NCBI GenBank assembly: GCA_964358065.1
Contig: CAYHNV010000001.1
Span: forward strand, 1-61,871
Source of the DNA: an uncultured Elusimicrobia bacterium
Lineage (GTDB): Bacteria > Elusimicrobiota > Elusimicrobia > UBA1565 > UBA9628
Length of the DNA: 61,871 nucleotides
Direction: 5' to 3'
Positions 17,598 through 57,228 of this stretch are shown piece by piece. Both the position numbers and the translations under genes were made by a program. A model generated the notes under the pieces. It was not told where the DNA came from. It ran no database searches and saw nothing but the letters and a program-made list of their open reading frames with translations. Each line of letters begins with the position of its first letter. The stretch's first letter is position 1.

Positions 17598-20000
17598 ATG
17601 CCCCGACCGATGAGCCAAGCGCCGGAACTCTCCGTTGTCCTGCCGACCCTCGACGAGGCCCCGGGCCTGCGCGTCCTTCTGCCGCGTTTGAAGGCCCTTT
17701 TCGTGCGCCTCGGCGTGCGCGGGGAGGTTCTGGTCATCGACGGGGGCTCGCGCGACGAGACGACTGCGGTCGCCGCGGAGCACGGCGCGCGCGTGCTGCG
17801 TCAGAAGGGCCTCGGCTTCGGCTCGGCCGTGCGCGAGGGACTGCGGGCCGCCGGCGCCGAGTGGGTCGCGCTGATGGACGCGGACGGCTCCCACGCGCCC
17901 GAAGACCTCGAGCGCTTCTGGGCGCGGCGCCAGGAGGCGCGGCTGATCGTGGGCTCGCGCTACTGCCGGGGCGGCTCGGCGGACATGCCTTTGCTGCGCC
18001 AGGTCCTCAGCCGCACGCTCAATATGGTCACGCGGCGCGTGCTGGACCTGTCCGTGCGCGAGTCTTCGAGCGGCTTCCGGCTCTATCATGGGCCCTCCGC
18101 CCGGGCCGTGCCCAGCGTCGCGACGGATTTCGGGGTCCAGCAGGACCTCCTCGTCGGCATCCTCGCCGCGGGCGGACGGGTGGTCGAGGAGCCGATCCAT
18201 TACGCGCCGCGCGTGGGGGGGGGCTCGAAGGCGAACGCCTGGAAGCTGGCCCCGGCCTACATGTGTCTGCTCCTGCGTCTGAAGCCCCTGCGCGGCGGTT
18301 GGCGCGCCGAGGCGGGACTCTTCTGCGTGTTGGCCCTAGGGCTTGCCACGGGCCTGTGCGGCATCACAGGCGGCCTGCCGGGTCCGGCCCGCTGGCGGGC
18401 ACTTCCCGAGGGGCTTCATCAGTCTCCCGTCTTCGCGCGCAGCCTCGCCGACTCCTGGGGGCGTCTTTATCAGGAGATCAAAAAATCCCACAACGAGATG
18501 CGCGCCGACGAGCCTCGCACCTCGGTCCAAGGGGTCGTCGAGATCGCCCCGGGCTGGACCTTCCCTCCCGACGAGCTGGTCAATGCCGCGCGCGCCCTGC
18601 TGACACAGTCCGTGAATCCCGACGAGAAGAAGTCCTTCATCATCCTGGCGCAGATGCGGCCGTGGCGTCTGGAGTTCAAGCCCCTCTATGCCCAATACGG
18701 CGGCGCGTTCATCTATCCTCTCGGCGCCTTCCTGGGGGTGGCGCATCTGCTTCATCTGGCGCGACTGACGCCCGACCTGGCCTATTATCTGGCCGCGCCG
18801 GAGGCGATGGCCCGCCTCTACCTCCTCGGCCGCTTTTTCACGCTCTTCTTCCACCTGGGCACGCTCTGGTTGCTCTACGAGTTGGGACGCATCCTTTCCG
18901 GACGCCGGACCGGGACCGTGGCGGCCCTTCTTTGGGCCCTCGCCCCGGTCGCGATCGTCAACGTCCACGTCCTCAAGCCTCATCCTGTCGCGGCCTTCTT
19001 TTTCCTGGCCGGAGCCTTCTGCGTGGTGCGCGCGGTGGAGGAGGGGCGTTGGGTGGACTACCTCCTGGCCGGGCTCGGCATGGGGCTGGCGGCCGGCGGC
19101 AGCCTGGCCCTCGGCTACGGCCTCGCGGCACCTCTCATCGCGCGGGCGTGCCGCCGCGAGGGGCCCTGGCGAGCGCCCCTTCTCGGCACGGCCGTCGGGC
19201 TCGCGGTCGTGATCGTCACCAGTCCATTTCTCGTCTTCTCGCCTCGGGACTTCGCCTGGGAGCTCACCATCTACTCCCCGTCTCGTTTCGGCCTCTCTCT
19301 CGGGGGCTTGGCCGCCTTCATCTTCCGCGTCGTCCCGGAGGGGCTCGGGGCCGCGCTGGCCGCGCTGGCCGCGGCGGGCCTGGCGCGCGCCCTCTTCTCG
19401 GACGCGCGCCGCCGCGCAGCGGCCCTGCTCGCCCTCGGGGGGATTTTCGTCGTGCTGCTCCGCTTCCCGGAGATATCGGCCGGCACCGGTTGCCTGCGCC
19501 TGTACTACCCGGCCGCGGCCCTGGGCGTTCTCTTCGCCGCCGACCTCCTGTCCGCGCTCCACTCCCCGGCGCTGGCCGGGCTCCTGCTGGCGGGCGTCTT
19601 GGCCGACACGGGCCTGCGCGGTGCCGTCTATCTCGAGAACCTCCGCCGAGAGGCCGGGCCATCGTCGACGAAAGCCCTCGCCGCGGACTGGGTGGACGCG
19701 AACATCCAGGCCGGAGCCTCGGTCGGTCTCCTGCGTTATCCCGAACCCGCGCACACCCCGCCCTTCCGCTGGGACCGCCTGCGCCTAGTCGTCTTCGAGT
19801 CGTTCCGGGACCTAAAAGCGCGCCCCGTGCCGGAGTGGATCGTCGCCAGCGCCTCGGGTTGGGATGCCGTGGACGAGGGCCTGCGCAGCCGCTATGATGA
19901 GGCTCGGAGCTTCGCGCCGGCTCGCCTGCTGTGGGCTGCGCCGCGCGACGACTCCTTCTTTGCGGACGCCGGCATGACCGTCCAGAGGCGCCGACCATGA
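17598..20000 (+). CDS. Fusion protein: DPM1/GtrB-like GT2 polyprenyl-phosphate sugar synthase (N-terminal) plus GT-C-fold membrane glycosyltransferase (C-terminal)
   Basis: ATG 17598 (MPRPMSQAPELSVVLPTLDEAPG...). GT2 motifs are VIDGGSRDET and LMDADGSH. From about 18300 onward there are more than 10 hydrophobic segments, with an acidic first-loop motif (NPDEKKSF) and a PMT_2/ArnT-like look. The frame is uninterrupted throughout. Confidence 0.75.
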   Translation: MPRPMSQAPELSVVLPTLDEAPGLRVLLPRLKALFVRLGVRGEVLVIDGGSRDETTAVAAEHGARVLRQKGLGFGSAVREGLRAAGAEWVALMDADGSHAPEDLERFWARRQEARLIVGSRYCRGGSADMPLLRQVLSRTLNMVTRRVLDLSVRESSSGFRLYHGPSARAVPSVATDFGVQQDLLVGILAAGGRVVEEPIHYAPRVGGGSKANAWKLAPAYMCLLLRLKPLRGGWRAEAGLFCVLALGLATGLCGITGGLPGPARWRALPEGLHQSPVFARSLADSWGRLYQEIKKSHNEMRADEPRTSVQGVVEIAPGWTFPPDELVNAARALLTQSVNPDEKKSFIILAQMRPWRLEFKPLYAQYGGAFIYPLGAFLGVAHLLHLARLTPDLAYYLAAPEAMARLYLLGRFFTLFFHLGTLWLLYELGRILSGRRTGTVAALLWALAPVAIVNVHVLKPHPVAAFFFLAGAFCVVRAVEEGRWVDYLLAGLGMGLAAGGSLALGYGLAAPLIARACRREGPWRAPLLGTAVGLAVVIVTSPFLVFSPRDFAWELTIYSPSRFGLSLGGLAAFIFRVVPEGLGAALAALAAAGLARALFSDARRRAAALLALGGIFVVLLRFPEISAGTGCLRLYYPAAALGVLFAADLLSALHSPALAGLLLAGVLADTGLRGAVYLENLRREAGPSSTKALAADWVDANIQAGASVGLLRYPEPAHTPPFRWDRLRLVVFESFRDLKARPVPEWIVASASGWDAVDEGLRSRYDEARSFAPARLLWAAPRDDSFFADAGMTVQRRRP

Positions 20001-21880
20001 ACCGCCCTCTGAGCCTCGTCTCCCCGACTGAACCTTGCGTGACCCTGCGCGCGGCGGGGCCCGGCGACCTAGAACAGCTTCGTGTCTGGAAAAACGCCAA
20101 CAAGAATGGCTTCTTCTTCCAGGGAGACATCACCCCGGAGATGCAGAAGGCCTGGTATGGCTCGTACCTCCTGCGCCCCGAAGACTTCATGTTTGTCGTC
20201 GAGCATGAGGGCCGCAAGGTCGGGTGCATGGGCTTCCGGCTCCAGAAGGACGGCTCGGCCGATGTCTACAACATCATCGCCGCGCCCGGCGGCGCGGGCC
20301 GGGGGCTCATGAAGGCGGCGATGGCGCTGATGTGCGCCCACATCGCGGCGCATCACACCAAGGACATCGGCTGTCTGGTCGTGAAGGGCAACCCGGCCGC
20401 GGCTTTCTACGAGCATTGCGGCTTCAAGATCGTCGCCGACGGCGGCGACCACCACATCCTGAAGCTCGCCGAAGACCCCGTCGTCGTCCTCGGGGCGGGC
20501 TGCGCGGGCCTCATGGCCGCGCGCCGCCTGCGCGAGAAGGGACGGCCGGTCCTGCTTGTGGAGGCCGAGGACCATGTCGGGGGTCTGGCCGGGGGCATCG
20601 TGCTCGGAGGCGACGTCTACGAGTACGGTCCCCACGTCTTCCACACCACCGACGCCGAGATCCTCGCCGACATCAAGACCCTCATGGGGAAAGACCTTCT
20701 TCCATATGAACGGACGATCCAAATCAAGTTCCTGGGCAACTACTTCAAGTTTCCGCTCTCTATCCCCGACGTCCTGCTCAAGCTCCCGTTGACGACGGTC
20801 CTCCTCGCGGCGGGGAGCTTCGTCTATCACTTCGTCAAGGGCGCCTGGGCCAAGCCCGTGCAGGAGAACTCCGAGACCCTCCTCCAGCGCTACTACGGCG
20901 ACGTGCTCTACCGACTTTTTTTCAAGGACTACATCCAACGCGTTTGGGGCATTCCCCCTTCGGCCTTCTCCCCGTCATTCGCGCGCGAACGCATCCCGCG
21001 CCTGAACATTCTGGACTTTCTCGATAAGGTCGTTGCGGCGGCGCGCGATGTTTTCTCCTCCGGCGCGGTCATGAAGACGGAGGGCTACGTCGAGAAGTTG
21101 GAGGGGCAGCTCTGGACCACGAAGAAGGGCTTCTCCATGATCTGCGAGCGCATGGCCGCCGACGCCTTGAAGAAAGGCGCCCGGCTGCGTCTCTCCACCC
21201 GCGCCGTCGCGGTGCGCCGCGAAGGCGGGAAGGTCACGGCCGTCGAACTGGAGTATGGAGGCAAGAGAGAGATCGTGCCTTGCTCCGGGATCGTGAACAC
21301 GCTGGCCATCAACGACGCGGCGCGGATGTTCACGCCGCCCTTGGGGGACGCGGCGGCGGCGGCGGCCGAGGCGCTCCGCTTTCGGGCCATCGTCTTTGTC
21401 GGGCTCAAAGTCCGTCGGCCGAAGGTCCTGCGCGCCTCCTTCATGTACTTCCGCGAGCATTCCTTCAACCGCATCACGGACCTCGCGCACTTCGGCTTCC
21501 ACATGGACCCGCCCGGGACCACGCTGTTGGTGGCGGAGGTCGCCTGCGACACGAAGGACCCCATCTGGATGGACGAGGCCCTGGCGGTGGAGGCCGTGGT
21601 CGCCGACCTTGTCCGTGAGGGCATCCTCGCCCGCGCGGAGGTGGCCTCCTCGCATGTCTTCCGCGCCCGCCACGCCCACCCCATGTACACCCTGGGCTAC
21701 GAAGCGGCGCTCAAGACGCTTCTTGACGCCTTCGCGGGCCTGTCGAACGCCGAGACCGCGGGCCGCCAGGGGCGCTTCCAGTACGTGAACACGCACGTGG
21801 CCATGAAGATGGGCCTGGACGCCGCCGACCGCCTGGACGCGAAGCTTCCCCGCATGGACAATAACGGGGAAATGCGCTAG
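19997..21880 (+). CDS. Fusion protein: GNAT N-acetyltransferase (N-terminal) plus FAD/NAD(P)-binding oxidoreductase of the UGM/amine-oxidase type (C-terminal)
   Basis: The ATG at 19997 overlaps the upstream stop (ATGA). GNAT motifs are VVEHEGRKVGCMGF and GGAGRGLMKAAM...FYEHCGFKIV. The dinucleotide motif VVVLGAGCAGLMAARRL follows, then FFKDYIQRVWG (compare FxxYxxKxWG in UDP-galactopyranose mutases). Confidence 0.7.
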   Translation: MNRPLSLVSPTEPCVTLRAAGPGDLEQLRVWKNANKNGFFFQGDITPEMQKAWYGSYLLRPEDFMFVVEHEGRKVGCMGFRLQKDGSADVYNIIAAPGGAGRGLMKAAMALMCAHIAAHHTKDIGCLVVKGNPAAAFYEHCGFKIVADGGDHHILKLAEDPVVVLGAGCAGLMAARRLREKGRPVLLVEAEDHVGGLAGGIVLGGDVYEYGPHVFHTTDAEILADIKTLMGKDLLPYERTIQIKFLGNYFKFPLSIPDVLLKLPLTTVLLAAGSFVYHFVKGAWAKPVQENSETLLQRYYGDVLYRLFFKDYIQRVWGIPPSAFSPSFARERIPRLNILDFLDKVVAAARDVFSSGAVMKTEGYVEKLEGQLWTTKKGFSMICERMAADALKKGARLRLSTRAVAVRREGGKVTAVELEYGGKREIVPCSGIVNTLAINDAARMFTPPLGDAAAAAAEALRFRAIVFVGLKVRRPKVLRASFMYFREHSFNRITDLAHFGFHMDPPGTTLLVAEVACDTKDPIWMDEALAVEAVVADLVREGILARAEVASSHVFRARHAHPMYTLGYEAALKTLLDAFAGLSNAETAGRQGRFQYVNTHVAMKMGLDAADRLDAKLPRMDNNGEMR

Positions 21881-21891: not shown

Positions 21892-22995
21892 ATGATCAAC
21901 GTTTTCGGCTCTCTGATGGGCCCGGAGGAGCTCGAGGAGGTCCGCACCAGTCTTGAGGCCCAGTGGATCGGCATCGGACCCAAGACCGCCGCTTTCGAGC
22001 AGGGTTTCGCGCAGCGCCTGGGGCTTCCCGGCTTCGTCCTGCTTGATTCCGGCTCCAACGCCCTGCACCTGGCGGTCAAGCTCCTCGACCTGCCTCCGGG
22101 CTCGGACATCCTGGTCCCCTCCTTCACCTGGATCGCCTGCGCGCATGCGGTCGTCCTGTCCGGCCATCGTCCCGTCTTCGCGGACGTGGACCTCGACACA
22201 CACAACATCACGCTGAAGACGGCCTCGGCGGCGCTCACGCCCAAGACCAAGGCCGTCATGGTCGTCCACTACGGGGGCCTGCCGGTCCGCGTCGATGAGA
22301 TCAAAACCTTGGGCCTGCCGATCATCGAGGACGCCGCCCATGCCGTGGATTCCCGTCTCAAGGACGCGGCCTGCGGCGGCATGGGTGAGGTCGGCATCTT
22401 CAGTTTCGACGCGATCAAGAACCTCGCGATGGGCGAGGGGGGCGGACTGACCGCCAAGGACCCCCAGCGCCTGGCGCGCGCGCGGCAGCTGCGCTACTGC
22501 GGCATCGGCAAGTCCGGCTTCGAGGCTTCGGCGTCGAAGGATCGCTGGTGGGAATACAACGTCACCGACTTCTTCCCGAAGATGCTGCCCAGCGACATCG
22601 CGGCCTCCATCGGCTTGGCCCAGCTGCGCAAGTTGGGCGCCATGCAGGCTTACCGCCGGAAGATATGGGAGCTCTACCAGAAAGAGTTCGCCTCCCTCGG
22701 CTGGCTCGCGCGGCCCCAGGACGCTCCGGCCGACGCCACTCATTCTTTTTTCACCTACTGCGTGCGGGTTCCGGCGGGCCGGCGAGACGCCTTCGCAAAA
22801 TACCTCTACCAGAACGGGATTTACACCACCTTGCGCTACCACCCGCTGCACATGAACAAGATATACGGCTCCTCAGCCCGGTTGCCGGTCTGTGAGCGCT
22901 TGAACGAGGAAGCCTTGAGCCTGCCTCTCCATCCGGGCCTCAAGGACGGCGATGTCGCCAAGATCGTGGACATGGTCAAGGCTTGGAAGGGATGA
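21892..22995 (+). CDS. DegT/DnrJ/EryC1/StrS-family PLP-dependent sugar aminotransferase
   Basis: Motifs: FEQGFAQRLG, DSGSNALHLA, PIIEDAAHAV and FSFDAIKNL (the PLP lysine). Confidence 0.88.
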   Translation: MINVFGSLMGPEELEEVRTSLEAQWIGIGPKTAAFEQGFAQRLGLPGFVLLDSGSNALHLAVKLLDLPPGSDILVPSFTWIACAHAVVLSGHRPVFADVDLDTHNITLKTASAALTPKTKAVMVVHYGGLPVRVDEIKTLGLPIIEDAAHAVDSRLKDAACGGMGEVGIFSFDAIKNLAMGEGGGLTAKDPQRLARARQLRYCGIGKSGFEASASKDRWWEYNVTDFFPKMLPSDIAASIGLAQLRKLGAMQAYRRKIWELYQKEFASLGWLARPQDAPADATHSFFTYCVRVPAGRRDAFAKYLYQNGIYTTLRYHPLHMNKIYGSSARLPVCERLNEEALSLPLHPGLKDGDVAKIVDMVKAWKG

Positions 22996-23015
22996 ACCTG
23001 TCAAGGAGTCGATCA

Positions 23016-23474
23016 ATGGGAAAGAAGATGTTTGTCGGCGGCTTGCCTTACGAAGTGACGGAGAGTCAATTGAGCGAGATGTTCTCCGCCTGCGGGCAGG
23101 TCGTGAGCGCGAAAGTGATCAAGGACCGCGACACCGGCCTCTCCAAGGGCTTCGGCTTCGTGGAGATGGGCAGTGACGCCGAGGCGGCGGCCGCGATTAT
23201 GAAGCTCCATAACAGTCCCGTGGGAGCGCGGCGCATCATCGTCAACGAAGCCCGTCCCATGGAGGCGCGCCCGAGCGGCGGTTTCGGCGAAAAGAAGAGC
23301 TTCGCCGGGCGGCCCGGGGGTTTTGCTCCCCGTCCCGGCGACGACAAGCCCGGAGGCCGCGGCGACCGCGGCGACCGCGGCGGCAAACGGGGCGGCTTCG
23401 ATGGCAAGCGCGGCGGCTTTGGCGGCAAGAAGGGCGGCAAGGGCCGCCGGGATGAGAGCGGCGACTCTTGGTGA
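23016..23474 (+). CDS. RRM-type RNA-binding protein with RGG/Gly-rich C-terminal tail
   Basis: AAGGAG at 23003-23008 lies 7 nt upstream of ATG 23016. MFVGGLPY is RNP-2 and KGFGFVEM is RNP-1. The tail reads GGRGDRGDRGGKRGGFDGKRGGFGGKKGGKG. Confidence 0.85.
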   Translation: MGKKMFVGGLPYEVTESQLSEMFSACGQVVSAKVIKDRDTGLSKGFGFVEMGSDAEAAAAIMKLHNSPVGARRIIVNEARPMEARPSGGFGEKKSFAGRPGGFAPRPGDDKPGGRGDRGDRGGKRGGFDGKRGGFGGKKGGKGRRDESGDSW

Positions 23475-24696: not shown

Positions 24697-26385
24697 ATGA
24701 AATTCAAGCGCGCTTTTGTCGCCGGGTTGAAGCGCCATCGCGCCTTCCTGACGGTCGTTCCCCCGGCGGCGCTGCTGCGGCTGGTGGGGATCGGCTACGG
24801 TCTGCCGGCGGTGTTCAACGGCGACGAACCCCATCACGTCAACGTGGCCATGTCCTTCGGCCGCGGCAGCCTCAACCCAGGGATATTCAAATATCCGACG
24901 CTGTGGATGTACGTCCTGTTCGCGGCCTATGCGGGCGGGTTTATCCTGTGGTCGGGAGCGGGGTTGCTGGGATCCGCGCAGGAATTCGGGGAGCTGTTCG
25001 TCTGGCGCCACTCGGGTTTCTACCTTGCCGGCCGCCTGCTTTCGACCGCGTTCTCCCTGGGGGGATTATGGTGGGTCTATCGCGCGGCCGGCCTGGCGGG
25101 GGGCCGCCCGTCGGGAGTGTTGGCCGCCGCTCTTCTCGCCGTCTCCGCCCCGATGATCGAGTCGGCTCATTCGGTCAAGCCGGACTGTCTGATGTTCTTC
25201 TTCGCCGCCTGGTCCTGGTGGCAGGCGATGGCGTACTTGGAACTCGGCGGCTGCCGTCGACTGCTGCTGTGCGCGGCGGCGGTGGGGCTGTCCGTATCGA
25301 GCCAGTACACGGCGGCGCCGCTGGCCGTTCTAGTCCCGGTGGTCTGGCTGGCGCGCCGCCGCCTGCGTCCCGGCCGGGCCGATGGAGCGGGAGTTCTGGC
25401 GGCGGCTCTGGCGGTCGTGGGACTGCTCTTCTTGGCGGGGACTCCATTCGCCCTGCTGGACGCGCCGACTTTCGCTCGGGATGTGCGAGACAGTTGGGCC
25501 GCGCACGGTGCGGGCCAAGCCATGACGGCGGGCTGGCGTCCGTTGTTCAATCTGATGGGATTCTCCGCGTCTTGGCCGCTGGGGGCCGTCGTGCTGTCGG
25601 CGGGGATCGTCCGGCTTGGGCGGCGCAGTCCGGCGCACGCCTTGTGCCTGTTGCTGCCTTGCGCGGCGACCGTCCTCTTCTTCTCCCGTCAGGCCGTCGG
25701 GGGCAACGCCCGGTATCTGTACAGCGTATTTCCCGCCGTCGCGATCCTTTCCGCGTTGGGGGTTCGGACGTTGGTCGGACGTGGAGGAGTCTTCCCGGTG
25801 GGCATTCGGCTGAGGTGGGTGGTCTTCCTTCTGCTGTTGTTGCCGGGAGCCCGGGCGAGTTGGAGCTTCGACCGGGAACTCCTTCTTCCCGACACGCGTA
25901 CGTTGGCATCCCTATGGGTTGGTGAGAACCTGCCGGCCGGCACGAGGATCCTCTCCGATCATGAGGCGGACGCGCCGCGCATCGCGATGAGCCGCGATTT
26001 CGCGCTTCACCTTTATGAACTGATGAAGGCCTCCGGTCATCCGCGCCGGCGGTACTATCAGTTGATGGCCTCCGGCCATCCGGGCGGCGGCTATGAGGTC
26101 TATCAGGTCCATCGGGCGGCGGCGGAGCTGTTAAGCGGGCCCTGGCACGCGCAGTGGTCCGCGGCCGGGCGACCGGTGATGGATGTCCGGGAGGGACTCG
26201 ACGTCGCTCGGAAGGCCGGCGTCGAGGTGGTGATCCTGACCAGCTTCGGCTTGGCCAGGAACGAGAGCGAGCCTTACGTGCTTCAGACCCGCTCACAGGG
26301 GCGTCTGCTGTCCGAGTTCCGGCCCGAGACGGGGAAGATCCGTGGTCCCCATATCGAGATCTACCGCGTCGGGTCGGAGAGATGA
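24697..26385 (+). CDS. GT-C-fold membrane glycosyltransferase (ArnT/PMT_2-like)
   Basis: ATG 24697 (MKFKRAFVAGL...), with an alternative ATG at 24670. It has the first-loop motif VFNGDEPHHVN, more than 10 TM segments, and a soluble C-terminal domain. It is divergent from the GT2 at 23481-24635. Confidence 0.75.
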   Translation: MKFKRAFVAGLKRHRAFLTVVPPAALLRLVGIGYGLPAVFNGDEPHHVNVAMSFGRGSLNPGIFKYPTLWMYVLFAAYAGGFILWSGAGLLGSAQEFGELFVWRHSGFYLAGRLLSTAFSLGGLWWVYRAAGLAGGRPSGVLAAALLAVSAPMIESAHSVKPDCLMFFFAAWSWWQAMAYLELGGCRRLLLCAAAVGLSVSSQYTAAPLAVLVPVVWLARRRLRPGRADGAGVLAAALAVVGLLFLAGTPFALLDAPTFARDVRDSWAAHGAGQAMTAGWRPLFNLMGFSASWPLGAVVLSAGIVRLGRRSPAHALCLLLPCAATVLFFSRQAVGGNARYLYSVFPAVAILSALGVRTLVGRGGVFPVGIRLRWVVFLLLLLPGARASWSFDRELLLPDTRTLASLWVGENLPAGTRILSDHEADAPRIAMSRDFALHLYELMKASGHPRRRYYQLMASGHPGGGYEVYQVHRAAAELLSGPWHAQWSAAGRPVMDVREGLDVARKAGVEVVILTSFGLARNESEPYVLQTRSQGRLLSEFRPETGKIRGPHIEIYRVGSER

Positions 26386-27848
26386 ACGAAGCAGCCTCCG
26401 AGCGCCGTCTCGTCGGCGTGGTCTTTATTTCCTGCCTGCTGCTGTATCTTTCTTTCCGCTCGCTGTACTTCAACTTCGACGGGATCGCCTGCGCCACCGC
26501 GGTCGAACTTTCCGATTTCAAGCACCTGGTCCATGGCAACCATCTGGTTTACGGGGTGCTGGGGTGGCTTTTCGATCAAGGGTGGCGCCTCCTCGGTTAC
26601 GGCGGCCGCGCCATCCTCTCGCTCCAGGTCCTGGATGGAATTCTTGGCGCGGCCGCAGCCGCGGTCTTCGCCTCGATCCTGCACCGCGCCGGGCGCGGCG
26701 AGCGCGAGGCGGCGCTCGGCGCGGCCGCGCTGGCGGTCTCGCAGGCCTGGTGGTTCTGGAGCCTGGAGGCGCAGGTCTACATGCTGGGAGCGCTCTTTGC
26801 CGCACTCTCCGCGCGTGAGGCCCTGGCCGACAGTCCGAGTCCGGAACGTCTCGGACTCTGGCATGCGGGCGCGGTGTTGGGACACGTCGGGCACGTGATG
26901 GCGCTTCCGGCGCTGATCTTCATCCTGACGCGCAAGCGCGGGTGGGCGAGCGTTGTCCCCTATGGCGGCGTCCTGGCCGGGGCGGTGCTTGCTTCTTACG
27001 CGCTCGCGGGCGTCTTCGCCGTACGCCCCCAAGCCCTCGCGGAACTATGGTTGTGGCTGGTGGGCAGCGCCGCGCTCGGTCCCGACCGGGCCTTCTCCTG
27101 GCATGCACCGACCTTTGTCGCCGCCTTCCCGGATTGGGGCCGGATGACACTGCGAATCTTCTGCGATTTTGTCGGGAGCTCGGGTGCCGTCTGGTGCGCC
27201 GGCGTCATCCTGGCGGCGCTGCCGTTGGCCGCCGCCGTCGTCGGGGCCGTCCGGGGAGGGCTTGTGGGGCGCTTCTGGATCCTCTGGCTGGGCGGCTACG
27301 CGGCGCTTTACCTGACCTGGGAACCAGCCACGGTCGTCTATCGTGTCAGCGACCTGCTCGCACTATGGGCCTTGGGGCAAATTGCCATCGCGCGCCGGCC
27401 TTCTTGGATGCGCAGCGGCGCGCTTGCAGCCTGGGTCGCGGCGGCCTTCGCCTACAACCTCATCTTCCTCGTGCGCCCGTCCGCCGATCCGGCGTCCAAC
27501 GCGGACCTCGTCGAAGCGCGTTGGACCGGGGAGCACGTGCCCGAGGACGCATGGGTGTTGGCCAACAGCCGCGGCGCCATCTACCTGCCGTACTTCATGG
27601 GTCTTAAGCCCCTGAACCTGCGCTACTTCATGGCTGGGGATGCCCTCTTTGCCCGGCTCGACGCGCTGGCGAAGAACGGCGAAGCCGTTTATGCGACGGA
27701 TCGCACGATGGAGCATGTCGGGGTGCGTGAAGCGCTGGGGCGCTATGGGTTGGAGGATGCTGTTTCCGGCGAAGGGCTTAGGCTCTACCGCGTCAGGCGA
27801 AAGGCGGGCAAACGCGAGCACCATCGATATGGTAAAGTAAAAAAATGA
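26382..27848 (+). CDS. Polytopic membrane protein, probable GT-C-like (DUF2723/TMEM260-like appearance)
   Basis: The ATG at 26382 overlaps the upstream stop (ATGA). The N-terminus SLYFNFDGIACATAVELSDFKHLVHGNHLVYGVLGWLF is followed by many TM segments and a soluble C-terminal region. Confidence 0.5.
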   Translation: MNEAASERRLVGVVFISCLLLYLSFRSLYFNFDGIACATAVELSDFKHLVHGNHLVYGVLGWLFDQGWRLLGYGGRAILSLQVLDGILGAAAAAVFASILHRAGRGEREAALGAAALAVSQAWWFWSLEAQVYMLGALFAALSAREALADSPSPERLGLWHAGAVLGHVGHVMALPALIFILTRKRGWASVVPYGGVLAGAVLASYALAGVFAVRPQALAELWLWLVGSAALGPDRAFSWHAPTFVAAFPDWGRMTLRIFCDFVGSSGAVWCAGVILAALPLAAAVVGAVRGGLVGRFWILWLGGYAALYLTWEPATVVYRVSDLLALWALGQIAIARRPSWMRSGALAAWVAAAFAYNLIFLVRPSADPASNADLVEARWTGEHVPEDAWVLANSRGAIYLPYFMGLKPLNLRYFMAGDALFARLDALAKNGEAVYATDRTMEHVGVREALGRYGLEDAVSGEGLRLYRVRRKAGKREHHRYGKVKK

Positions 27849-28624
27849 CCATAAAGGTGGCCATTTTAGCCGGCGGTCTTGGCTCCAGACTCTCCGAGAT
27901 GACGGATCGCCTCCCCAAGCCCATGGTCGAGATCGGCGGCCGGCCGATCCTCTGGCACATCATGAAGCATTACGCCCACTTCGGCATGCGCGACTTTGTG
28001 ATCGCGTTGGGATATAAGGGAGAGGTCATCAAGGACTATTTCGTCAACTATCACCTCCACAGCAATCATCTCACCGTTCGCCTCAAGACGGGCGCCGTCG
28101 AGGTTTCGGAAGGCGGCCATGAGGATTGGAAGGTCCATCTTCTCGATACCGGGGAAAAAACACAGACCGGCGGGCGCGTGCGGCGGGTCATGCAGTCCGT
28201 GGGCCGGGAGCCCTTGATGCTGGCCTATGGCGACGGGGTTTCCAATGTGGATATCGGGAAACTCCTCAAGTTCCATCGCGCTCACGGCAAGCTTGCGACG
28301 GTGACCGCGATGCGGCCCCCCGCGCGCTTCGGCGCGCTGCAGCTCAAGGCCGACAGGGTCACGCGCTTCATCGAAAAGCCCCAGGCCGGCGACGGCTGGA
28401 TCAACGGCGGTTTTTTTGTGCTCGAGCCGGGCGTCATCGATTATATCGAGGGAGACCTCACCCTTTTCGAGAAGGAGCCGCTGGAGCGTTTGGCGCGCGC
28501 GGGGCAGCTCGTCGCCTACCGCCATGATGATTTCTGGCAGTGCATGGACACCGTCCGGGATGTGCGGCTGCTCGAGGACCTCTGGGGCGGGGGCAAGGCC
28601 CCATGGAAACTGTGGAAGCGATGA
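27845..28624 (+). CDS. rfbF: Glucose-1-phosphate cytidylyltransferase
   Basis: Motifs: ILAGGLGSRLSEMTDRLPKPMVEIGGRPILWHIMKHY, GGRV and INGGFFVLEP. Length is about 259 aa. ATGA overlaps at both ends. Confidence 0.92.
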   Translation: MTIKVAILAGGLGSRLSEMTDRLPKPMVEIGGRPILWHIMKHYAHFGMRDFVIALGYKGEVIKDYFVNYHLHSNHLTVRLKTGAVEVSEGGHEDWKVHLLDTGEKTQTGGRVRRVMQSVGREPLMLAYGDGVSNVDIGKLLKFHRAHGKLATVTAMRPPARFGALQLKADRVTRFIEKPQAGDGWINGGFFVLEPGVIDYIEGDLTLFEKEPLERLARAGQLVAYRHDDFWQCMDTVRDVRLLEDLWGGGKAPWKLWKR

Positions 28625-29604
28625 AGGATCCCTGGTCCAAGAGCCGCGTGCTTGTCACGGGCGCCACCGGCATGGTCGGCGCATGGCTCGTCAAGGAGCT
28701 CCTCCGGCGGGGCGCTTACGTCGCGGCCCTGGTCATGGACGGCGACCCGCAATCCGAACTCTATCGCAGCGGCGATGTCCAACGAACGTCGGTCGTCAAC
28801 GGCCGTCTGGAGGATTTTAGGACGCTTGAGAGAGCCGTCAGCCTCCATGAGATCGACACCGTGTTCCACCTGGGCGCACAGGCGATCGTGGGGGCCGCCC
28901 AGCGCATCCCCCTGGCCACCTTCGAGGCGAACATCCGAGGCACCTACAACCTGCTCGAGGCCTGCCGCCTGCACCGAGACCTGGTCCGGCGCGTCGTGAT
29001 CGCCTCCAGCGACAAGGCATACGGCGATCAGGGCAAGAAGCCCTACGAAGAAACGATGGAGCTCAGGGGCCGCCGTCCCTACGAGGTATCCAAGAGCTGC
29101 GCGGACCTGCTCGCGCAGAGCTACCACCACAGCTACGGGTCGCCCGTCGCCATCGCGCGCTGCGGCAACATCTATGGGGGAGGCGATCTCAATTGGAGCC
29201 GCATCGTCCCCGGCACAATCCGCAGTCTTCTGCGCGGTGAGCGTCCCCTCATCCGCAGCAACGGCGCCTATGTGCGGGACTATTTCTTCGTGAAGGACGC
29301 CGTCGCCGCTTATCTGGGATTGGCGGAGAACTTGGCGGACAGCCGCGTGCGCGGGGAGTGCTTCAACTTCGGGCCGAAGAAGCCGTCGACCGTCACGGAG
29401 ATCGTCGCCGAGATCCAGAGACTGATGGGAACCCGCCTCAAACCCGACATCCGTGACCAGGTGCGCGGCGAGCTTGTGAGCCAGCATGTCTGTTCAGCCA
29501 AGGCGGAAGCCTTGCTCGGCTGGAAGACAGGGTATGGGCTCGAGCAGGGTCTGGCGGAGACCATCGCGTGGTACAAAGATTTCCTGCAGGGTCCCCTCAG
29601 ATGA
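28621..29604 (+). CDS. rfbG: CDP-glucose 4,6-dehydratase
   Basis: ATG 28621 (MKDPWSKSRVLVTGATGMVGAWL). YEVSKSCAD is the YxxxK motif, and WSRIVPG is also present. It sits directly downstream of rfbF. Confidence 0.85.
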   Translation: MKDPWSKSRVLVTGATGMVGAWLVKELLRRGAYVAALVMDGDPQSELYRSGDVQRTSVVNGRLEDFRTLERAVSLHEIDTVFHLGAQAIVGAAQRIPLATFEANIRGTYNLLEACRLHRDLVRRVVIASSDKAYGDQGKKPYEETMELRGRRPYEVSKSCADLLAQSYHHSYGSPVAIARCGNIYGGGDLNWSRIVPGTIRSLLRGERPLIRSNGAYVRDYFFVKDAVAAYLGLAENLADSRVRGECFNFGPKKPSTVTEIVAEIQRLMGTRLKPDIRDQVRGELVSQHVCSAKAEALLGWKTGYGLEQGLAETIAWYKDFLQGPLR

Positions 29605-30050
29605 TCGACGGCGTCACCATCCGCCCCTTACGCCAGATCCCGGACGAGCGCGGCAAGGTCATGCACATGCTGAGGCGCGACGATCCATGGTATGAAGAGT
29701 TCGGAGAGATCTATTTCTCCTGCGTCTATCCGGGCGCGATCAAGGCGTGGCATCTGCACAGGAGCATGATCCTCTCTTACGCGGTCGTCAGCGGTGCGAT
29801 CAAGCTGGTCTTATACGATGCCCGCTCCCGCTCCAAGACCAAGGGGATGCTTCAGGAGGTATTCACCGGAGAGTCCCAGTACTCGCTGATCCGGGTCCCT
29901 CCCGGCGTCTGGAACGGCTTCAAAGGGCTCGGCGAGACGATGTCGATCGTGGCCAACTGCGCCTCCGAGCCTCACGATCCCCAAGAGATCGTCCGTCTCG
30001 ACCCCTCGTCCAAGAAGATCCCCTACGACTGGGCGCTCAAGAATGGGTAA
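29601..30050 (+). CDS. RmlC-like cupin sugar-nucleotide epimerase (dTDP-4-dehydrorhamnose 3,5-epimerase family, short form)
   Basis: ATG 29601 (MIDGVTIRPLRQIPDERGKVMHMLR). Motif: IKAWHLHRSMILSYAVVSGAIKLVLYDARSRSKTKG. About 149 aa. Confidence 0.75.
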   Translation: MIDGVTIRPLRQIPDERGKVMHMLRRDDPWYEEFGEIYFSCVYPGAIKAWHLHRSMILSYAVVSGAIKLVLYDARSRSKTKGMLQEVFTGESQYSLIRVPPGVWNGFKGLGETMSIVANCASEPHDPQEIVRLDPSSKKIPYDWALKNG

Positions 30051-32274: not shown

Positions 32275-33046
32275 GATCGCGATCTTCATTCCCGCCTACA
32301 ACGCGGCCTATACATTGCCGGTGGTCCTCGACCGCATCCCACCCGAGATCAAGGAGAAGGTCCAGAAAATCTTCGTCATCGACAACGCCAGTCCCGACAA
32401 CACCTATCTGATCGGCATCGGATATCGGCAGGCCAAGGGCCTCGATAAGCTGGAGGTGTTCCGCAACGACAAGAATCGCGGCTATGGGGGCAGCCAGAAG
32501 ATCGCTTACCGCTACGCCATCGACAACGGCTTCGACATCGTCGTGATGCTTCACGGGGACGCCCAATACGCCCCGGAAAAGATCCCCGCCCTGCTCGAAC
32601 CACTGGAACTCGGCCAGGCGGACATGGTCTTCGGGTCCCGCATCGCGGGCCTCCCGCTCAAGGGCGGCATGCCGCTCTACAAGTTCCTCGGCAACAAGTT
32701 CCTGACCTGGGTCCAGAACAGGGTGCTCGGCATGGATTTAAGCGAGTTCCATTCCGGCTTCCGCCTTTTTAGCTGTGCGGCGCTGGCGCAACTTCCGTTC
32801 GATCTTTGCGCCGATGACTATCATTTTGACACCGACATCCTCCTGCAGTTCAAGATCAAGAGACTGCGTATCGTGGAATTGCCGATACCGACCTACTATG
32901 GAAAGGAAAAATGCGGCGTCAACGTGATCAGCTATGGCCTGAACGTCTTAAAATCGACGCTGGAGTACTGGCTCTGGTCGAAGGGCCTGCTCCGGGCCAA
33001 AAAATTCACGGCATGCCTTCGTCCGGCCGAGGTCCTGGCGCGATGA
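32261..33046 (+). CDS. DPM1-like GT2 polyprenyl-phosphate sugar synthase (soluble type)
   Basis: Motifs: IAIFIPAYNAAYTL, VIDNASPDNT, GYGGSQK and MLHGDAQYAPE. It is a paralog of 54524-55291 and is followed by a GT-C gene with an ATGA overlap. Confidence 0.82.
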   Translation: MPGSKIAIFIPAYNAAYTLPVVLDRIPPEIKEKVQKIFVIDNASPDNTYLIGIGYRQAKGLDKLEVFRNDKNRGYGGSQKIAYRYAIDNGFDIVVMLHGDAQYAPEKIPALLEPLELGQADMVFGSRIAGLPLKGGMPLYKFLGNKFLTWVQNRVLGMDLSEFHSGFRLFSCAALAQLPFDLCADDYHFDTDILLQFKIKRLRIVELPIPTYYGKEKCGVNVISYGLNVLKSTLEYWLWSKGLLRAKKFTACLRPAEVLAR

Positions 33047-39829: not shown

Positions 39830-39839
39830 TCCATCTGTT

Positions 39840-40853: not shown

Positions 40854-40854
40854 C

Positions 40855-52446: not shown

Positions 52447-53859
52447 ATGACCATGACCGCCGCCAAGACCCGCGTCGAGAAGGACACCATGGGAGAGATC
52501 CCGGTGGCCGCCGACCGCTACTGGGGCGCCCAGACCGAGCGCTCTCTCCACCATTTCCAGGCTGGCGCCGGCCGCGACACGCTCACCCGCGAGTTGATCC
52601 GCGCCATGGGCGTCTTAAAAAAAGCCGCCGCCATGGCCAACGCCGAATTGGGTCTGCTCCCCAAGGAGAAGGAGAAGCTCATCCTTGCCGCCGCCGAGGA
52701 GGTCATCGAAGGCAAACTCGATACACATTTCCCGCTGGTGGTCTGGCAGACGGGCTCCGGTACTCAGTCGAACATGAATTCCAATGAAGTGATCTCCAAC
52801 CGTGCCATCGAGCTAGCCGGCGGGGCCCTGGGCTCCAAGAAGCCCATCCATCCCAACGACGATGTGAACAAGTCCCAGTCCTCCAACGACACCTTCCCGA
52901 CGGCTATGCACATTGCGGCGGCTGAGGTGCTCGTCCATGAATTGGTGCCCGCGGCGAAAGGCCTTCGCGACGCGCTGAAGAAAAAATCCATTGAATTTAA
53001 ATCGATCGTCAAGATCGGCCGCACCCATTTGATGGACGCCGTGCCCCTCACCCTCGGCCAGGAGGTCGGCGGCTGGGTCGCGCACCTGGACGCCGACCTT
53101 GCCCGCATCGAGATGGTCCTGCCCGGCATCTACGAGCTCGCCATTGGCGGCACCGCCGTCGGGACCGGCCTCAACACCCATCCGGACTTCGATCGGAAGG
53201 CCTCGGCTCATATCGCCAAGCTGACCAAGCTCCCCTTCAAGCCCGCCCCCAATAAGTTCGAGGCCTTGGCCGGCCACGACGCCCTCGTTTTCGCTCATGG
53301 CGCGTTGAAGACCCTGGCCTGCTCCCTGATGAAGATCGCCAACGATGTGCGCTGGCTGGCCTCCGGTCCACGCGCCGGCCTGGCCGAACTGCGCATCCCG
53401 GAAAACGAGCCCGGCAGCTCCATCATGCCCGGCAAGGTCAATCCCACCCAGTGCGAGGCGCTCACCATGATCGCCGCCCAGGTCCTGGGCAACGACGTCG
53501 CCATCAACATCGGCGGCGCCTCGGGAAACTTCGAGCTCAACGTCTTCAAGCCCCTGATCATCCACAACTTCCTGAACTCGGCCAAGCTCCTGGCGGCCGG
53601 CTGCCGTGGTTTCACCGAGCACTGCGCCGTCGGCATCCAGGCCGACGAGAAACGCATCGACGAGCTGATGCGCAGGAGCCTGATGCTGGTGACCGCGCTG
53701 AACACCCACATCGGCTACGACAGCTCGGCCAAGATCGCCAAGACCGCCCACGCCGAGGGCCTGACGCTCAAGGAAGCGGCGCTCAAGTTGGGCCTTGTCA
53801 CCGAGGGCCAGTTCGCCGATTGGATCAAGCCCGAAGAGATGTGCAAGCCGGGGCTCTGA
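52447..53859 (+). CDS. fumC: Class II fumarate hydratase
   Basis: Motifs: [35 protein letters not shown] and [16 protein letters not shown] (fumarate lyase signature). Confidence 0.95.
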
Positions 53860-53860
53860 C

Positions 53861-54523
53861 ATGGACGATGCCCAGGCCGATTTGATCCGCCGCATCGCCT
53901 CCGTCGTCGGTCACGAGCTGCGCAATCCGATGGCCGTGATCAATAATTCCGCCTACTTCGTGAAAGCGAAGCTTGGGCAGGGGGCGCTCGACCCGAAGGT
54001 CGAGAAGCACCTGAAGATCATCGAGAGCGAGATCGCCCGCGCCGACGGCCTTATCAGCGACATCTTGGCCTACTCGCGCAAGTGCGAGCCGACGGCCGAC
54101 ATCCGCGCCATGGACTTGACCGTGAAGGAAGCCGTGGACTCCTTCAAGACGCCCGCGGGCTGTCGGCTCGACTTCAAGCCGGGAGCCAAGGACGCGAAGG
54201 TAAAAACCGATGCGCAAATGCTCTCGGATTCGCTCCAGCGTCTCATCGACAACGCGTTCGCCGCACAGGACGGAAAGGGGACCGTGAAGGTCGCCACCGG
54301 CGCGGGCAAGGAAGGCGTCTGGGTCTCCGTGTCGGATACCGGAACCGGCGTTGACACGAAGGTCAAGGATAACCTCTTCGAGCCCTTCGTCACCACCAAG
54401 CCCCGCGGCCTCGGCCTGGGGCTGGCCCTGGTCAAGAAGCTTATCACGGCCAACGGCGGCTCGGCCCACTGCGAATCCGGGCCCCAGGGTTCGACCTTTC
54501 GCCTGATCCTGCCGAAGGCTTAG
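53861..54523 (+). CDS. Cytoplasmic histidine kinase core (HisKA plus HATPase_c) without a sensor or TM domain
   Basis: ATG 53861 lies 1 nt after the fumC stop. H-box VVGHELRNPMAVI, N-box RLIDNAFAA, G1 SDTGTGV, G2 GLGLGLALVKKL. Only about 220 aa. Confidence 0.8.
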   Translation: MDDAQADLIRRIASVVGHELRNPMAVINNSAYFVKAKLGQGALDPKVEKHLKIIESEIARADGLISDILAYSRKCEPTADIRAMDLTVKEAVDSFKTPAGCRLDFKPGAKDAKVKTDAQMLSDSLQRLIDNAFAAQDGKGTVKVATGAGKEGVWVSVSDTGTGVDTKVKDNLFEPFVTTKPRGLGLGLALVKKLITANGGSAHCESGPQGSTFRLILPKA

Positions 54524-55291
54524 ATGACCCCCGAGACCATGGCCAAGCCCAAAGTCATCGTCGTCATGCCGGCCTATAACGCCGAGAAGACTCTGGAGAG
54601 GACCATCAAGGACATCCCCGCCGGTGTCGTGGACGAGATCATCCTTGTCGACGATTGCTCGCGCGATGGGACCGTCGCGCTCGCCAAGAGGCTGGGCTTG
54701 ACCGTCATCCAGCATGAAAAGAACAAAGGCTACGGCGGCAACCAGAAGACCTGCTACACCGAGGCACTGAAGCGCGGCGCCGAGGTGGTCGTCATGGTCC
54801 ACCCGGACTACCAGTACGACGCGCGACTGGTGCCCATCATGGCGGCGCTGATCACCAGCGACATCTGCGACATGGTCTGCGGCAACCGGATCCGCACCCG
54901 CTGGGAAGCGCTCCAAGGGGGGATGCCGGTCTACAAGTACCTCTTCAACCGTCTTCTCACCGGGCTGGAGAACGAGGTGATGGGGCAGAATCTGGGCGAG
55001 TGGCATTCCGGCCTGCGCGCCTACTCGCGCCGGTGCCTGGAGACGGTGCCGTGGGAGAATAACTCCGACGATTTCGTCTTCGACCAGCAGTTTCTGATCC
55101 AGGCCGCCATGCTCAAACAGCGCCTGGGCGACGTGCCCGTGCCTGCGCGCTACTTCTCGGAGGCCTCCTCCATCAACTTCCGCCGCTCCTGCGTCTACGG
55201 GCTGTCGGCCCTCTACTATCTGGCCCTTTCCGTGGTCCAACGCCTGGGACTTGCGAGCTTCGACCTCTTTAAGTCCAAGCAGGCGCGATGA
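54524..55291 (+). CDS. DPM1-like GT2 polyprenyl-phosphate sugar synthase (soluble type)
   Basis: Motifs: [31 protein letters not shown] and [10 protein letters not shown]. It is a paralog of 32261-33046 and is followed by a GT-C gene with an ATGA overlap. Confidence 0.82.
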
Positions 55292-57228
55292 CCGCCGCTC
55301 TCTTCGCCGTTCTGACGGCCGCAATCGCCGCGGCGGTCGCCGCGGACGGACCTCTGCCTGCCTTGCGGCCGGGGATCCTTCCGCTGCTCCTGCTGGTCCT
55401 CTCGGGCACGGCCGCGGCCGGCGCGGGTCGGCGACTGGTCGGCCTTCTGACAAACGATTTGGATGAGGAAGAGAAGACGGTCGCGGGGGCGACGCTCGGA
55501 CTAGGATGTTTGTCGGTTGGGGTGTTTGCCCTCGGAGCCGTCGGCCTTTTCAAGCCGTGGGCCTGTTCGATGTTGTTGGGGGTGTTCTGGCTCGCCGCCT
55601 GGCCTGAAATCCAGCCGATGACGGATTCACTCCGTGCCGGGGTAAACCGTGCCGCTGAGAAACCGTGGCTGTGCGCGCTGATCGGCTTGCCGCTGCTCCT
55701 CGTGCTGTGGGCGTGCCTGGTGCCCCCGCACCAGTACGACTCGCTCGTCTACCATTTGGAGCTCCCTCAGGAGTATCTCCGCGCGGGTCGTTTGCACGCT
55801 CCTGAGGGCTTGGTGTATGCGCACTTCCCTCAGAACGGCGAGATGTTGTTCACCCTCGCTCTCCTCCTCGGTTCAGACGTCTTGGCTCAGATGTTCGTCT
55901 GGCTCTCCACGGCGTTGACCGTGGGTTGGCTGCTCACTTTCGGCCGTCGCCTCACGATCGCCGCCCCCTGGGCCGCCGTGCTCGTCGCCACGCATTCCGC
56001 AGTCCTGGCCATGTCCTCGACGACGTATGTCGAACCCCTGGTGATGCTGTGGTGCACCGCCGCGATCCTGGCCTTTGAGGCCTCCGATGTCGGCGCCAAG
56101 AAAGGCCTCCTCATCTTGTCGGCGGCGTTCACCGGCCTGGCCCTGGGCACCAAGTATTACGCGGGCCTGACGGCTATTCTGCTTGTTGCTCGTCTGGTCT
56201 ACCGTGACCGCCTGCGCGAGAGCGTGCTGTTTACACTCATCGCCACGGCGGTGTTCTCCCCGTGGCTGATCAAGAATGCCGTTCTCATCGGCAATCCGGT
56301 TTTTCCGTTTCTTTACCAGATTTTTCCAGCGACTTCTCTCGGTTGGACCGCTGATCTTGCCTCCGGTTATTTCTCGGTCCTGAGCGAGTACGGCCACGCG
56401 CATGGCTGGCTCCGCGATCTGGCGTCTTTGCCCATACTTCTTTTCCGCAATCCCCTGCGCTTCGGCGGCGGCATGGATGTCCTGGGAGACATCGGCTGGG
56501 ATCTGACGCTCTGGCTGTGGCCCGTCGGCTTATGGGCGGCGTGGCGGGGGAAGGCGCCCAAAGGTCTGGCGGTGTTCAGCGTTCTCTACTTCGCGGGCTG
56601 GTTTGCGACGGGCGTGGTCCTGCGCTTCCTGACCGCGGTCGCACCCGTGCTGGCGCTGCTGGGTGCTGCGGGCGGCGCGGGCATCTTCGAGCGGGGCTCC
56701 GCGCCTTTGCGCGGCCTCGCCGCGGCCGCGGTCGGCGTGATGATTGCCTCGCACCTCTTCCTCGTCTTGTTCGTTCACGGCGTCTTCGGCTCGGGATCCT
56801 TCCTGCTGGCCCTCGAGGACCGCGAGACGTTCCTCTCGCGGCGGCTGGACTACTATCCGTGCGCGGCCTACCTCGCGCGCGGCCCAGCAAGCGGCGGCAA
56901 GACTCTCATCGTGGGCGAGCAGCGCGGCTACTACTTCTCCACGGCGCATCGGACCAGCACGGTGCATGCTCCCAACCCCTATTTTCTCCGTGCCGATGCG
57001 GCCGCTTCCCCCGAGGACCTGGTCCGCGCCTTGCGCTCCGACGGCTACGCGCGCCTGGTCTTCGTGCCGCGCGAGACGCGCCGCCTGAACGCCGGACTGG
57101 GGACTTTGAGCGAGCGCGGCAAGGCCAACTGGCTCGGCATGCAACCCCTGCTGAAGACGGAGTTCCGCGGCAGCGCTTGCCTGGTCGCTTCCTTGGGGAG
57201 CGCGCCATATGAGGTGCTCCCAAAATGA
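55288..57228 (+). CDS. GT-C-fold membrane glycosyltransferase (PMT_2-like)
   Basis: More than 12 TM segments. Early-loop motif [18 protein letters not shown]. Soluble C-terminal domain. Pairing with the GT2 supports the call. Confidence 0.7.

Follow-up and report, generated by a model that had tools for sequence, protein, structure and literature searches.

GT2 and GT-C gene sets of an uncultured Elusimicrobia bacterium: probable parallel systems of extracytoplasmic glycosylation with different sugars

A mechanism in which a glycosyltransferase family 2 (GT2) synthase, a flippase and a membrane glycosyltransferase of the GT-C fold act together has been established for the Gtr, Arn, Gac, YfhO and GT136 systems (PMC11127046; PMC5836110). 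Here we describe a window of 61,871 nucleotides (nt), the whole stretch of DNA that was analysed, from an uncultured Elusimicrobia bacterium (contig CAYHNV010000001.1; G+C content 59–70%; closest relatives of its proteins in Elusimicrobiota metagenome-assembled genomes). A 40-kb stretch of it holds four GT2 and five GT-C proteins (Table 1), and because of these counts we recognise four sets, numbered along the DNA, where an earlier note on this sequence had counted five; the gene positions given there agree with the open reading frames (ORFs), translations and junctions. We consider it probable, at roughly 0.72, that the stretch encodes several parallel Gtr/Arn-type systems of extracytoplasmic glycosylation delivering different sugars. 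In such systems a cytoplasm-facing GT2 of the kind represented by dolichyl-phosphate mannose synthase (DPMS), ArnC, GtrB and PpgS would move a sugar from a nucleotide sugar to polyprenyl phosphate, a flippase would carry the lipid-linked sugar across the inner membrane to its outer face, and the adjacent GT-C would transfer the sugar to a periplasmic acceptor by means of an acidic residue in its first loop on the periplasmic side.

The Gtr system of O-antigen glucosylation (the flippase GtrA, the undecaprenyl-phosphate glucose (Und-P-Glc) synthase GtrB and a serotype-specific GT-C, Gtr*; in Gram-positive bacteria CsbB/GtcA/YfhO and GacI/GacL) shares with these sets a polyprenyl-phosphate (Pol-P) sugar synthase gene adjoining a GT-C gene, a GtrB/ArnC-like GT2 (in set 2 likewise with C-terminal transmembrane (TM) helices) and an acidic motif in the first external loop of the GT-C. 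It differs in that no GtrA-type flippase gene lies beside the sets described here, that four synthases and five GT-Cs stand in one region with one pair fused, that two of the GT-C families have no passing family match (a faint DUF8201 resemblance apart), and that the sets occur phylum-wide, whereas Gtr genes are serotype- or phage-borne accessories. Set 1 can be compared with the Arn system that modifies lipid A with aminoarabinose (ArnB, ArnA, ArnC, ArnD, ArnE/F and ArnT) and with the galactosamine (GalN) systems of Francisella (FlmF/FlmK) and mycobacteria (PpgS/Rv3779). Its ArnB-like DegT aminotransferase, N-acyl transferase, ArnC/DPMS-like GT2 and GT-C of the PMT_2 family, to which ArnT belongs in Pfam, recall the Arn genes, but set 1 has no ArnA-like dehydrogenase/decarboxylase, ArnD deacylase or ArnE/F, has a GNAT protein in place of the formyltransferase and adds a flavoprotein resembling UDP-galactopyranose mutase (UGM); nor do the GT-Cs match the solved ArnT by sequence.

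Set 4 in turn resembles the systems for pentofuranose and mycobacterial arabinan (PPPRS/DPPRS, a MATE or SMR flippase, and GT136/Emb/Aft), in which periplasmic GT-Cs use a lipid-monophosphate furanose donor on a WecA-primed glycan (PMC11127046). Likenesses are the WecA-like enzyme, the mutase predicted to form a furanose and the match of the GT-C fold to AftA/Emb; in contrast, the predicted donor synthase of set 4 is a GT2 using a nucleoside-diphosphate sugar rather than a UbiA-type phosphoribosyltransferase using phosphoribosyl pyrophosphate, and the furanose would be a hexofuranose from the UGM-like mutase. Protein O-mannosylation by Dpm1 (Ppm1) and PMT, as in eukaryotes and actinobacteria, offers a further comparison, since the GT2s of sets 1 and 3 are DPMS-like (5mlz) and PMT_2 GT-Cs here have a DE motif in loop 1, but the window proteins contain no MIR domain and no PMT (PF02366) match above threshold, and the neighbouring sugar genes indicate amino, dideoxy and furanose sugars, not mannose. 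The literature search returned nothing specific on envelope glycosylation in Elusimicrobia, on Pol-P-galactofuranose or -hexofuranose used with a GT-C, or on GT2/GT-C fusions. While the mechanism is of a known kind, the GT2::GT-C fusion, the link of GT2/GT-C genes to a UGM-like mutase and a CDP-3,6-dideoxyhexose pathway, the two GT-C families lacking a passing family match and the conserved four-gene operon of set 4 all appear uncharacterised in the literature searched.

The GT2 enzymes and their GT-C partners

All four GT2s match Glycos_transf_2 above the Pfam cut-off (the fusion through its N-terminal ~240 amino acids, aa), and their best NCBIfam matches are AglJ, dolichyl-phosphate (Dol-P) hexose transferase, PpgS and ArnC, with PpgS among the best for every one of them. 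For sets 1–3 the closest solved structures, by sequence search of the PDB, are Pyrococcus furiosus DPMS, ArnC and GtrB, the DPMS entry 5mlz ranking first for sets 1 and 3. The fusion GT2 matches DPMS at E 1e-15, followed by ArnC and GtrB, and aligns with it at the DAD..H, GSRY, SGF(R) and R..GxSK motifs. The set-2 GT2, whose orthologue has a GT2_TM_C domain, matches ArnC (9bhc) at E 5e-15 over aa 29–334, including the membrane part, and AglJ at E 2e-36; that of set 3 matches 5mlz at E 4e-9 and also ArnC, with AglJ and PpgS found by NCBIfam. In set 4 the best family match is PpgS (E 3e-17), with Dol-P-hexose transferase and AglJ also matching, and this GT2 is the weakest case of the four for membership of the class. 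Sets 1 and 2 carry the motifs DADGSH/DADGSY, G(S/N)R and SGFR/CGMR, while in sets 3 and 4 a histidine replaces the first aspartate (HGDAQY/HPDYQY) and G(S/N)R and SG(F/L)R are kept.

Judged by these sequence relationships, the four GT2s are probably enzymes of the DPMS/ArnC/GtrB/PpgS type producing predicted Pol-P-sugars. The polyprenyl-phosphate type proposed in the earlier note is thus borne out, as they group with Pol-P-sugar synthases by NCBIfam and, for sets 1–3, in the PDB, and not with processive GT2s; by PDB sequence the set-4 GT2 is weakly DPMS/ArnC-like. The window has six GT2 genes in all, and those with a GT-C gene as neighbour are exactly the four listed. Of the other two (15731–16726 and 39801–40853), the NCBIfam comparison covered the second, which best matches the Leloir GT2s TuaG and WcaA. 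This gene and the start of one for a 984-aa B12-binding radical SAM protein overlap by 29 nt, the pair occupying 39801–43779.

Three of the GT-C partners, namely the C-terminal part of the fusion, set-2 GT-C a and the set-3 GT-C, match PMT_2 above the Pfam cut-off. Of the remaining two, set-2 GT-C b has a sub-threshold TMEM260-like Pfam match and nothing else, and the set-4 GT-C has no Pfam match, a weak match to the LIC_10190 family and a faint DUF8201 annotation. AlphaFold (AF2) models of both, built from alignments of collected homologues, reached a mean pLDDT of 89.4 and pTM of 0.88 for GT-C b and 79.7 and 0.84 for the set-4 protein, and when they were compared with the PDB by Foldseek all matches with E<=1e-3 were GT-C enzymes. 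For GT-C b these include STT3 (ranked first), AftD, DPY19, ALG12 and ArnT (TMq 0.62), and for the set-4 GT-C they include STT3 (top), ArnT (TMt 0.58), AftA, Emb, ALG9, Pmt4 and PglB. The membrane partners are accordingly glycosyltransferases, as the earlier note had supposed, three by PMT_2 and two by fold, and none falls in a class of other function.

The acidic motif that the same note listed for each GT-C is present in all five: NPDE, NGDE, (N)FDG, MDEY and YDS each occur once, directly following a hydrophobic helix. Motif conservation was aligned for the families of set 1, set-2 GT-C b and set 4, and in all three the acidic residues are invariant: D342/E343 of NPDE in 34 homologues, D33 of FDG in 42 and D151 of YDS in 38. 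GT-C b has 200 Elusimicrobiota homologues, with N31-F32-D33-G34 invariant. Lying in the first loop after TM1, the motif would supply a periplasmic, catalytic-loop aspartate. The layout of the fusion fits this topology, in that a single predicted TM helix (aa 252–270, numbered from a start at 17559) separates its two domains, so that NPDE would lie on the opposite face of the membrane from the GT2 domain, as expected of a cytoplasmic GT2 and a periplasmic GT-C.

Coupling, conservation and divergence of the sets

The GT2 and GT-C genes are coupled by one in-frame fusion, by ATGA overlaps in sets 3 and 4 (at 33043 and 55288) and, in set 2, by a divergent arrangement of the GT2 gene and that for GT-C a across 61 bp; the fused, overlapping and divergent arrangements were described in the earlier note. 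Further ATGA overlaps join the fusion to the next gene (19997), GT-C a to GT-C b (26382), GT-C b to the cytidylyltransferase gene (27845), the set-4 GT-C to the WecA-like gene (57225) and the latter to the mutase gene (58256), and such overlaps suggest translational coupling. In relatives the synteny of GT2 with GT-C is kept for sets 1, 3 and 4. The fusion is 87% identical to a protein of Elusimicrobia bacterium GWC2_65_9 and has ~57 full-length homologues down to 45% identity, the named ones all from Elusimicrobiota, where ~35 unfused homologues of its GT-C are also found; fused and unfused forms have the same neighbours.

A further reading is that GT2 and GT-C genes stand side by side through incidental crowding in a glycan island, with no donor/transferase pairing behind it. 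The entire 62-kb window is indeed dense with glycan genes, and the adjacency of set 2 is lost in the closest relative, but the fusion persists down to the identity just given, the set-4 gene order recurs in 65–71 of 75 genomes, ATGA overlaps bind the genes together, and triple fusions of GT2, GtrA and PMT_2 exist. Chance adjacency is disfavoured by the fusion and the conserved synteny above all, and we regard it as highly improbable.

The paralogues themselves are, as far as their sequences can tell, anciently diverged. The GT2s are 24–37% identical to one another, the GT-Cs are barely or not alignable, and hhalign gives a probability of 0.2% for a relationship between the two GT-C families without a passing Pfam match. 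Sets 1 and 2 are mutual nearest paralogues for both GT2 and GT-C; the GT2s of sets 3 and 4 are nearest each other (37% identity), with no detectable similarity between their GT-Cs. Recent co-duplication of the GT2/GT-C pairs (the earlier note proposed a test for co-duplication) is not supported, given the low GT2 identity and the barely or not alignable GT-Cs.

Table 1. Genes and motifs of the GT2/GT-C sets, their neighbours and the upstream glycan genes in the window.
Feature	Position (nt)	Strand	Basis and remarks
Wzx-like flippase	319–1857		Pfam
Sugar C-methyltransferase	6427–7728	+	
AsnB-type amidotransferase	8812–10848	+	
Radical SAM/SPASM protein	11824–12873	-	
Set-1 fusion: DPMS/ArnC-like GT2 (aa ~1–240), one TM helix, PMT_2-type GT-C (aa ~240–800)	17598–20000	+	Pfam
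NPDE motif of fusion	18615–18626		
GNAT N-acetyltransferase fused to UGM-like/PRK07208-type flavoprotein	19997–21880	+	Pfam; NCBIfam PRK07208 E 1e-60
DegT-family sugar aminotransferase, ArnB/PseC-like	21892–22995	+	Pfam E 1e-84; NCBIfam matches all below cut-off
Set-2 GT2, ArnC/GtrB-like, four predicted C-terminal TM helices	23481–24635	-	Pfam GT2
Set-2 GT-C a, PMT_2 type	24697–26385	+	PMT_2 33.5 bits (cut-off 26.1); NGDE at 24817–24828
Set-2 GT-C b, no passing Pfam match	26382–27848	+	AF2 and Foldseek; NFDG at 26472–26483
Glucose-1-phosphate cytidylyltransferase	27845–28624	+	NCBIfam 373 bits (cut-off 300)
CDP-glucose 4,6-dehydratase-like protein	28621–29604	+	Below NCBIfam cut-off
RmlC-like cupin	29568–30050	+	Pfam
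RmlD-like reductase fused to RfbH 3-dehydrase	30043–32274	+	RfbH 627 bits (cut-off 423)
Set-3 GT2, 261 aa, DPMS-like, no TM helix	32261–33046	+	Pfam GT2; overlaps end of RfbH gene
Set-3 GT-C, PMT_2 type	33043–34260	+	PMT_2 29.8 bits (cut-off 26.1); MDEY at 33145–33156; ATGA overlap with GT2
Wzy_C (O-antigen ligase/polymerase-like) membrane protein with C-terminal TPR	34282–36903	+	Pfam Wzy_C, TPR
Set-4 GT2, 255 aa, PpgS/Dol-P-hexose-transferase-like	54524–55291	+	Pfam GT2
Set-4 GT-C, DUF8201/LIC_10190-like	55288–57228	+	AF2 and Foldseek; YDS at 55735–55743; ATGA overlap with GT2
WecA-like polyprenyl-phosphate N-acetylhexosamine-1-phosphate transferase	57225–58259	+	Pfam Glycos_transf_4; ATGA overlap with set-4 GT-C
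Eukaryote-type UGM-like flavoenzyme	58256–59614	+	ATGA overlap with WecA-like gene

Sugar supply beside the sets

Because each adjoins a different supply route, the sets probably carry different sugars, and the distinct nucleotide-sugar genes beside them lend support to the earlier suggestion of several sugars. Set 1 has an aminotransferase, an N-acetyltransferase and a mutase-like flavoprotein, which suggests an acetamido sugar. The flavoprotein part (20450–21880) of the GNAT fusion is a Pfam amine oxidase whose best PDB sequence matches are, distantly, UGMs, and it is 20% identical to the set-4 flavoenzyme. In two relatives (loci L001 and L081) the GNAT and flavoprotein are separate genes beside the set-1 GT-C, which DegT orthologues 76–88% identical also adjoin; the unfused order in L081 is GT2, flavoprotein, GT-C, GNAT and DegT, and that of GWC2_65_9 is fusion, GNAT, DegT and flavoprotein. 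Two metagenomic proteins of ~945 aa (P0104 and P0105) have GT2, GtrA and PMT_2 in one chain, so that a Gtr-type system has its three components fused. The gene at 22983–23474, which separates the DegT gene from the set-2 GT2, encodes a small RNA-binding protein (RRM_1) whose tail is rich in Gly/Arg.

Sets 2 and 3 are probably supplied by the CDP-3,6-dideoxyhexose pathway, the core of which is, on family assignments, what the four genes from 27845 to 32274 encode; the cytidylyltransferase and RfbH both exceed equivalog cut-offs. We take the 5-epimerase-like cupin and the 4-reductase to make this run resemble the ascarylose branch. The fusion of the RmlD-like reductase to RfbH is unusual. The Wzy_C-TPR gene closes the set-2/3 run and is a candidate for handling the acceptor glycan; it has a 62% identical orthologue at the equal position in a third relative (L080), where a 55% orthologue of the set-3 GT-C stands ahead of it, and it also occurs in L001. 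TldD/PmbA-like peptidase genes follow the Wzy_C-TPR/GT-C genes in the window (36875–39781), in L080 (17181–18403) and in L081 (14061–17361). In the window the first of them appears broken in two (36875–37618 and 37588–38148), perhaps by a frameshift or through misassembly.

The neighbours of set 4 are a WecA-like priming enzyme and a UGM-like enzyme, the latter suggesting a hexofuranose. The WecA-like protein was also considered as MraY and rejected, on E 8e-28 for WecA vs 4e-12 for MraY and the lack of a dcw context. The flavoenzyme matches UGM of Aspergillus fumigatus (E 5e-46) and, over its full length (aa 4–443), that of Trypanosoma cruzi (E 5e-45), which led us to reject the amine oxidase of the Pfam annotation and a carotenoid desaturase. 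Its segments GH, FYR, GY and GRYGAWKY align to UGM, and we take the aligned residues to fall at the catalytic positions (the His loop, R327, Y419, R447 and Y453). A synteny scan of one genome per species, with the set-4 GT-C as anchor and its neighbours sought by tblastn, found the GT-C in 75 species-level genomes or loci, all Elusimicrobiota, accompanied by the GT2 in 71, the WecA-like gene in 68 and the UGM-like gene in 65, and most or all of the gaps coincide with ends of the available sequence. Across these loci identity is 63–90% for the GT2 and 37–84% for the GT-C, which is 84% identical to a protein of RBG_16_66_12. The operon is flanked by two less constant genes. Downstream of the mutase, an ORF of 128 aa (59611–59997; in 35 of the 75 loci) has a predicted lipoprotein signal, one hydrophobic segment and no family match; upstream, a histidine-kinase core of 242 aa (HisKA and HATPase; 53795–54523), lacking both sensor and TM parts, stops at the base before the GT2 start and is matched in only two of the 75 (85% and 30% identity).

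A different reading of set 4 is an en bloc pathway, in which the WecA-like enzyme makes undecaprenyl-diphosphate-linked N-acetylhexosamine (Und-PP-HexNAc), the mutase makes UDP-galactofuranose (UDP-Galf), the GT2 is a Leloir Galf-transferase (GlfT-like), and, once the glycan has been flipped, the GT-C acts on it in its Und-PP-linked form as an oligosaccharyltransferase (OST), ligase or polymerase. The operon does combine a WecA-like enzyme and a UGM with no other glycosyltransferase, the GT2 has weak and non-specific PDB matches, the top fold matches of the GT-C are STT3/OST, and its C-terminal domain weakly resembles the C-terminal globular domain of AglB by Foldseek. However, the best family matches of the GT2 are Pol-P-sugar synthases, as given above, and its nearest paralogue is the set-3 GT2; the GT-C sequence has no WWDxG-type OST motif, and the ArnT fold matches it about equally, AftA and ALG9 being similar. 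Moreover, since GT-C b likewise ranks STT3 first, that rank may reflect the number of OST structures in the library. We judge the en bloc pathway decidedly unlikely. A bolder form of the Pol-P-sugar reading, which we put forward tentatively and think unlikely as a whole, is that the set-4 operon builds a core envelope glycan of Elusimicrobiota on Und-PP-HexNAc, with the GT-C adding sugars from a Pol-P-hexofuranose donor (e.g. Und-P-Galf), and that the set-1 fusion makes and consumes its lipid-sugar in one chain, possibly without a flippase.

Acceptor, missing components and significance

The ~62 kb consists mostly of genes for envelope-glycan biosynthesis by Pfam annotation of all large ORFs. 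The genes that precede the sets encode the Wzx-like flippase, a Bac_transf phosphoglycosyl transferase, a GDP-mannose dehydratase, C- and O-methyltransferases, GT4, GT9 heptosyltransferase-like and Leloir GT2 enzymes, and an asparagine synthase. The upstream radical SAM/SPASM, C-methyltransferase and AsnB-type genes suggest more unusual sugar modifications. Sets 1 and 4 and GT-C b being conserved phylum-wide, a conserved envelope structure is a likelier acceptor than a strain-variable O-antigen branch, and the most likely acceptor would be a conserved envelope glycoconjugate, either lipopolysaccharide (LPS) or an Und-PP-primed glycan. It would be built by the Wzx, phosphoglycosyl transferase, Wzy_C-TPR and Leloir enzymes of the window.

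The GT-Cs might instead be protein O-glycosyltransferases (PMT/TMEM260/TfpW-like) that act from Pol-P-sugars on proteins which are secreted or belong to the envelope, for example pilins or those of the S-layer. Such a role accords with the three PMT_2 members, the weak TMEM260-like match of GT-C b, the presence of Pmt4 and DPY19 among the fold matches and a Wzy_C-TPR protein in the set-2/3 operon whose family includes PglL-like O-oligosaccharyltransferases; a bacterial GT-C, TfpW, is reported to glycosylate pilins with a furanose (bioRxiv 10.1101/2020.04.19.049825). PMT_2 membership, however, says nothing on the acceptor because ArnT-type lipid and glycan transferases also belong to it, the window is rich in polysaccharide and LPS genes (Wzx, Bac_transf, GT9 heptosyltransferase-like and GT4s), and no evident gene for a Ser/Thr-rich target is linked. 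Protein O-glycosylation seems to us quite improbable.

Several observations weigh against parallel Gtr/Arn-type systems, which we nevertheless prefer. None of the four GT2s attains an NCBIfam equivalog cut-off, and for that of set 4 the PDB matches (GpgS, DPMS, a GT2 of unassigned type and ArnC) all fall between E 5e-4 and 1e-2. By sequence the GT-C proteins match no solved GT-C structure. The set-2 pairing may be looser, because the orthologue of its GT2 (82%) in the closest relative has no orthologue of GT-C a or b beside it. Synthesis of 3,6-dideoxyhexoses normally requires the E3 reductase (RfbI/AscD), which was not seen in the operon at 27845–32274. No set is accompanied, among the window ORFs, by a GtrA-like, SMR-like (ArnE/F) or dedicated MATE flippase. 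What is present instead is the distant Wzx-like protein and a MarC-family protein of six TM helices (15127–15765), the latter a candidate for the missing membrane component. The MarC gene lies with one for an FkbM methyltransferase upstream of the fusion (15127–17541, minus strand), and the two have counterparts of 81% (MarC) and 57% (FkbM) identity at 4184–5601 in L080, a 47%-identity relative.

Elusimicrobiota are almost entirely uncultivated. The loci described here predict extensive extracytoplasmic decoration of the envelope with sugars of unusual types (acetamido, 3,6-dideoxy and furanose) from lipid-monophosphate carriers, and they supply concrete genes with which the envelope chemistry of the phylum can be tested. 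The operon of set 4, being strictly conserved, is a candidate marker for the phylum, and the two GT-C families without a passing family match (the DUF8201-like family and that of GT-C b) could seed new CAZy families. The fusion is a natural synthase/transferase joined across the membrane and bears on how Pol-P-sugars get flipped. Should the bolder form set out above be true, set 4 would be the hexofuranose counterpart of mycobacterial arabinan synthesis from decaprenylphosphoryl arabinose (DPA), and a Pol-P-hexofuranose would represent a new class of glycosyl donor.

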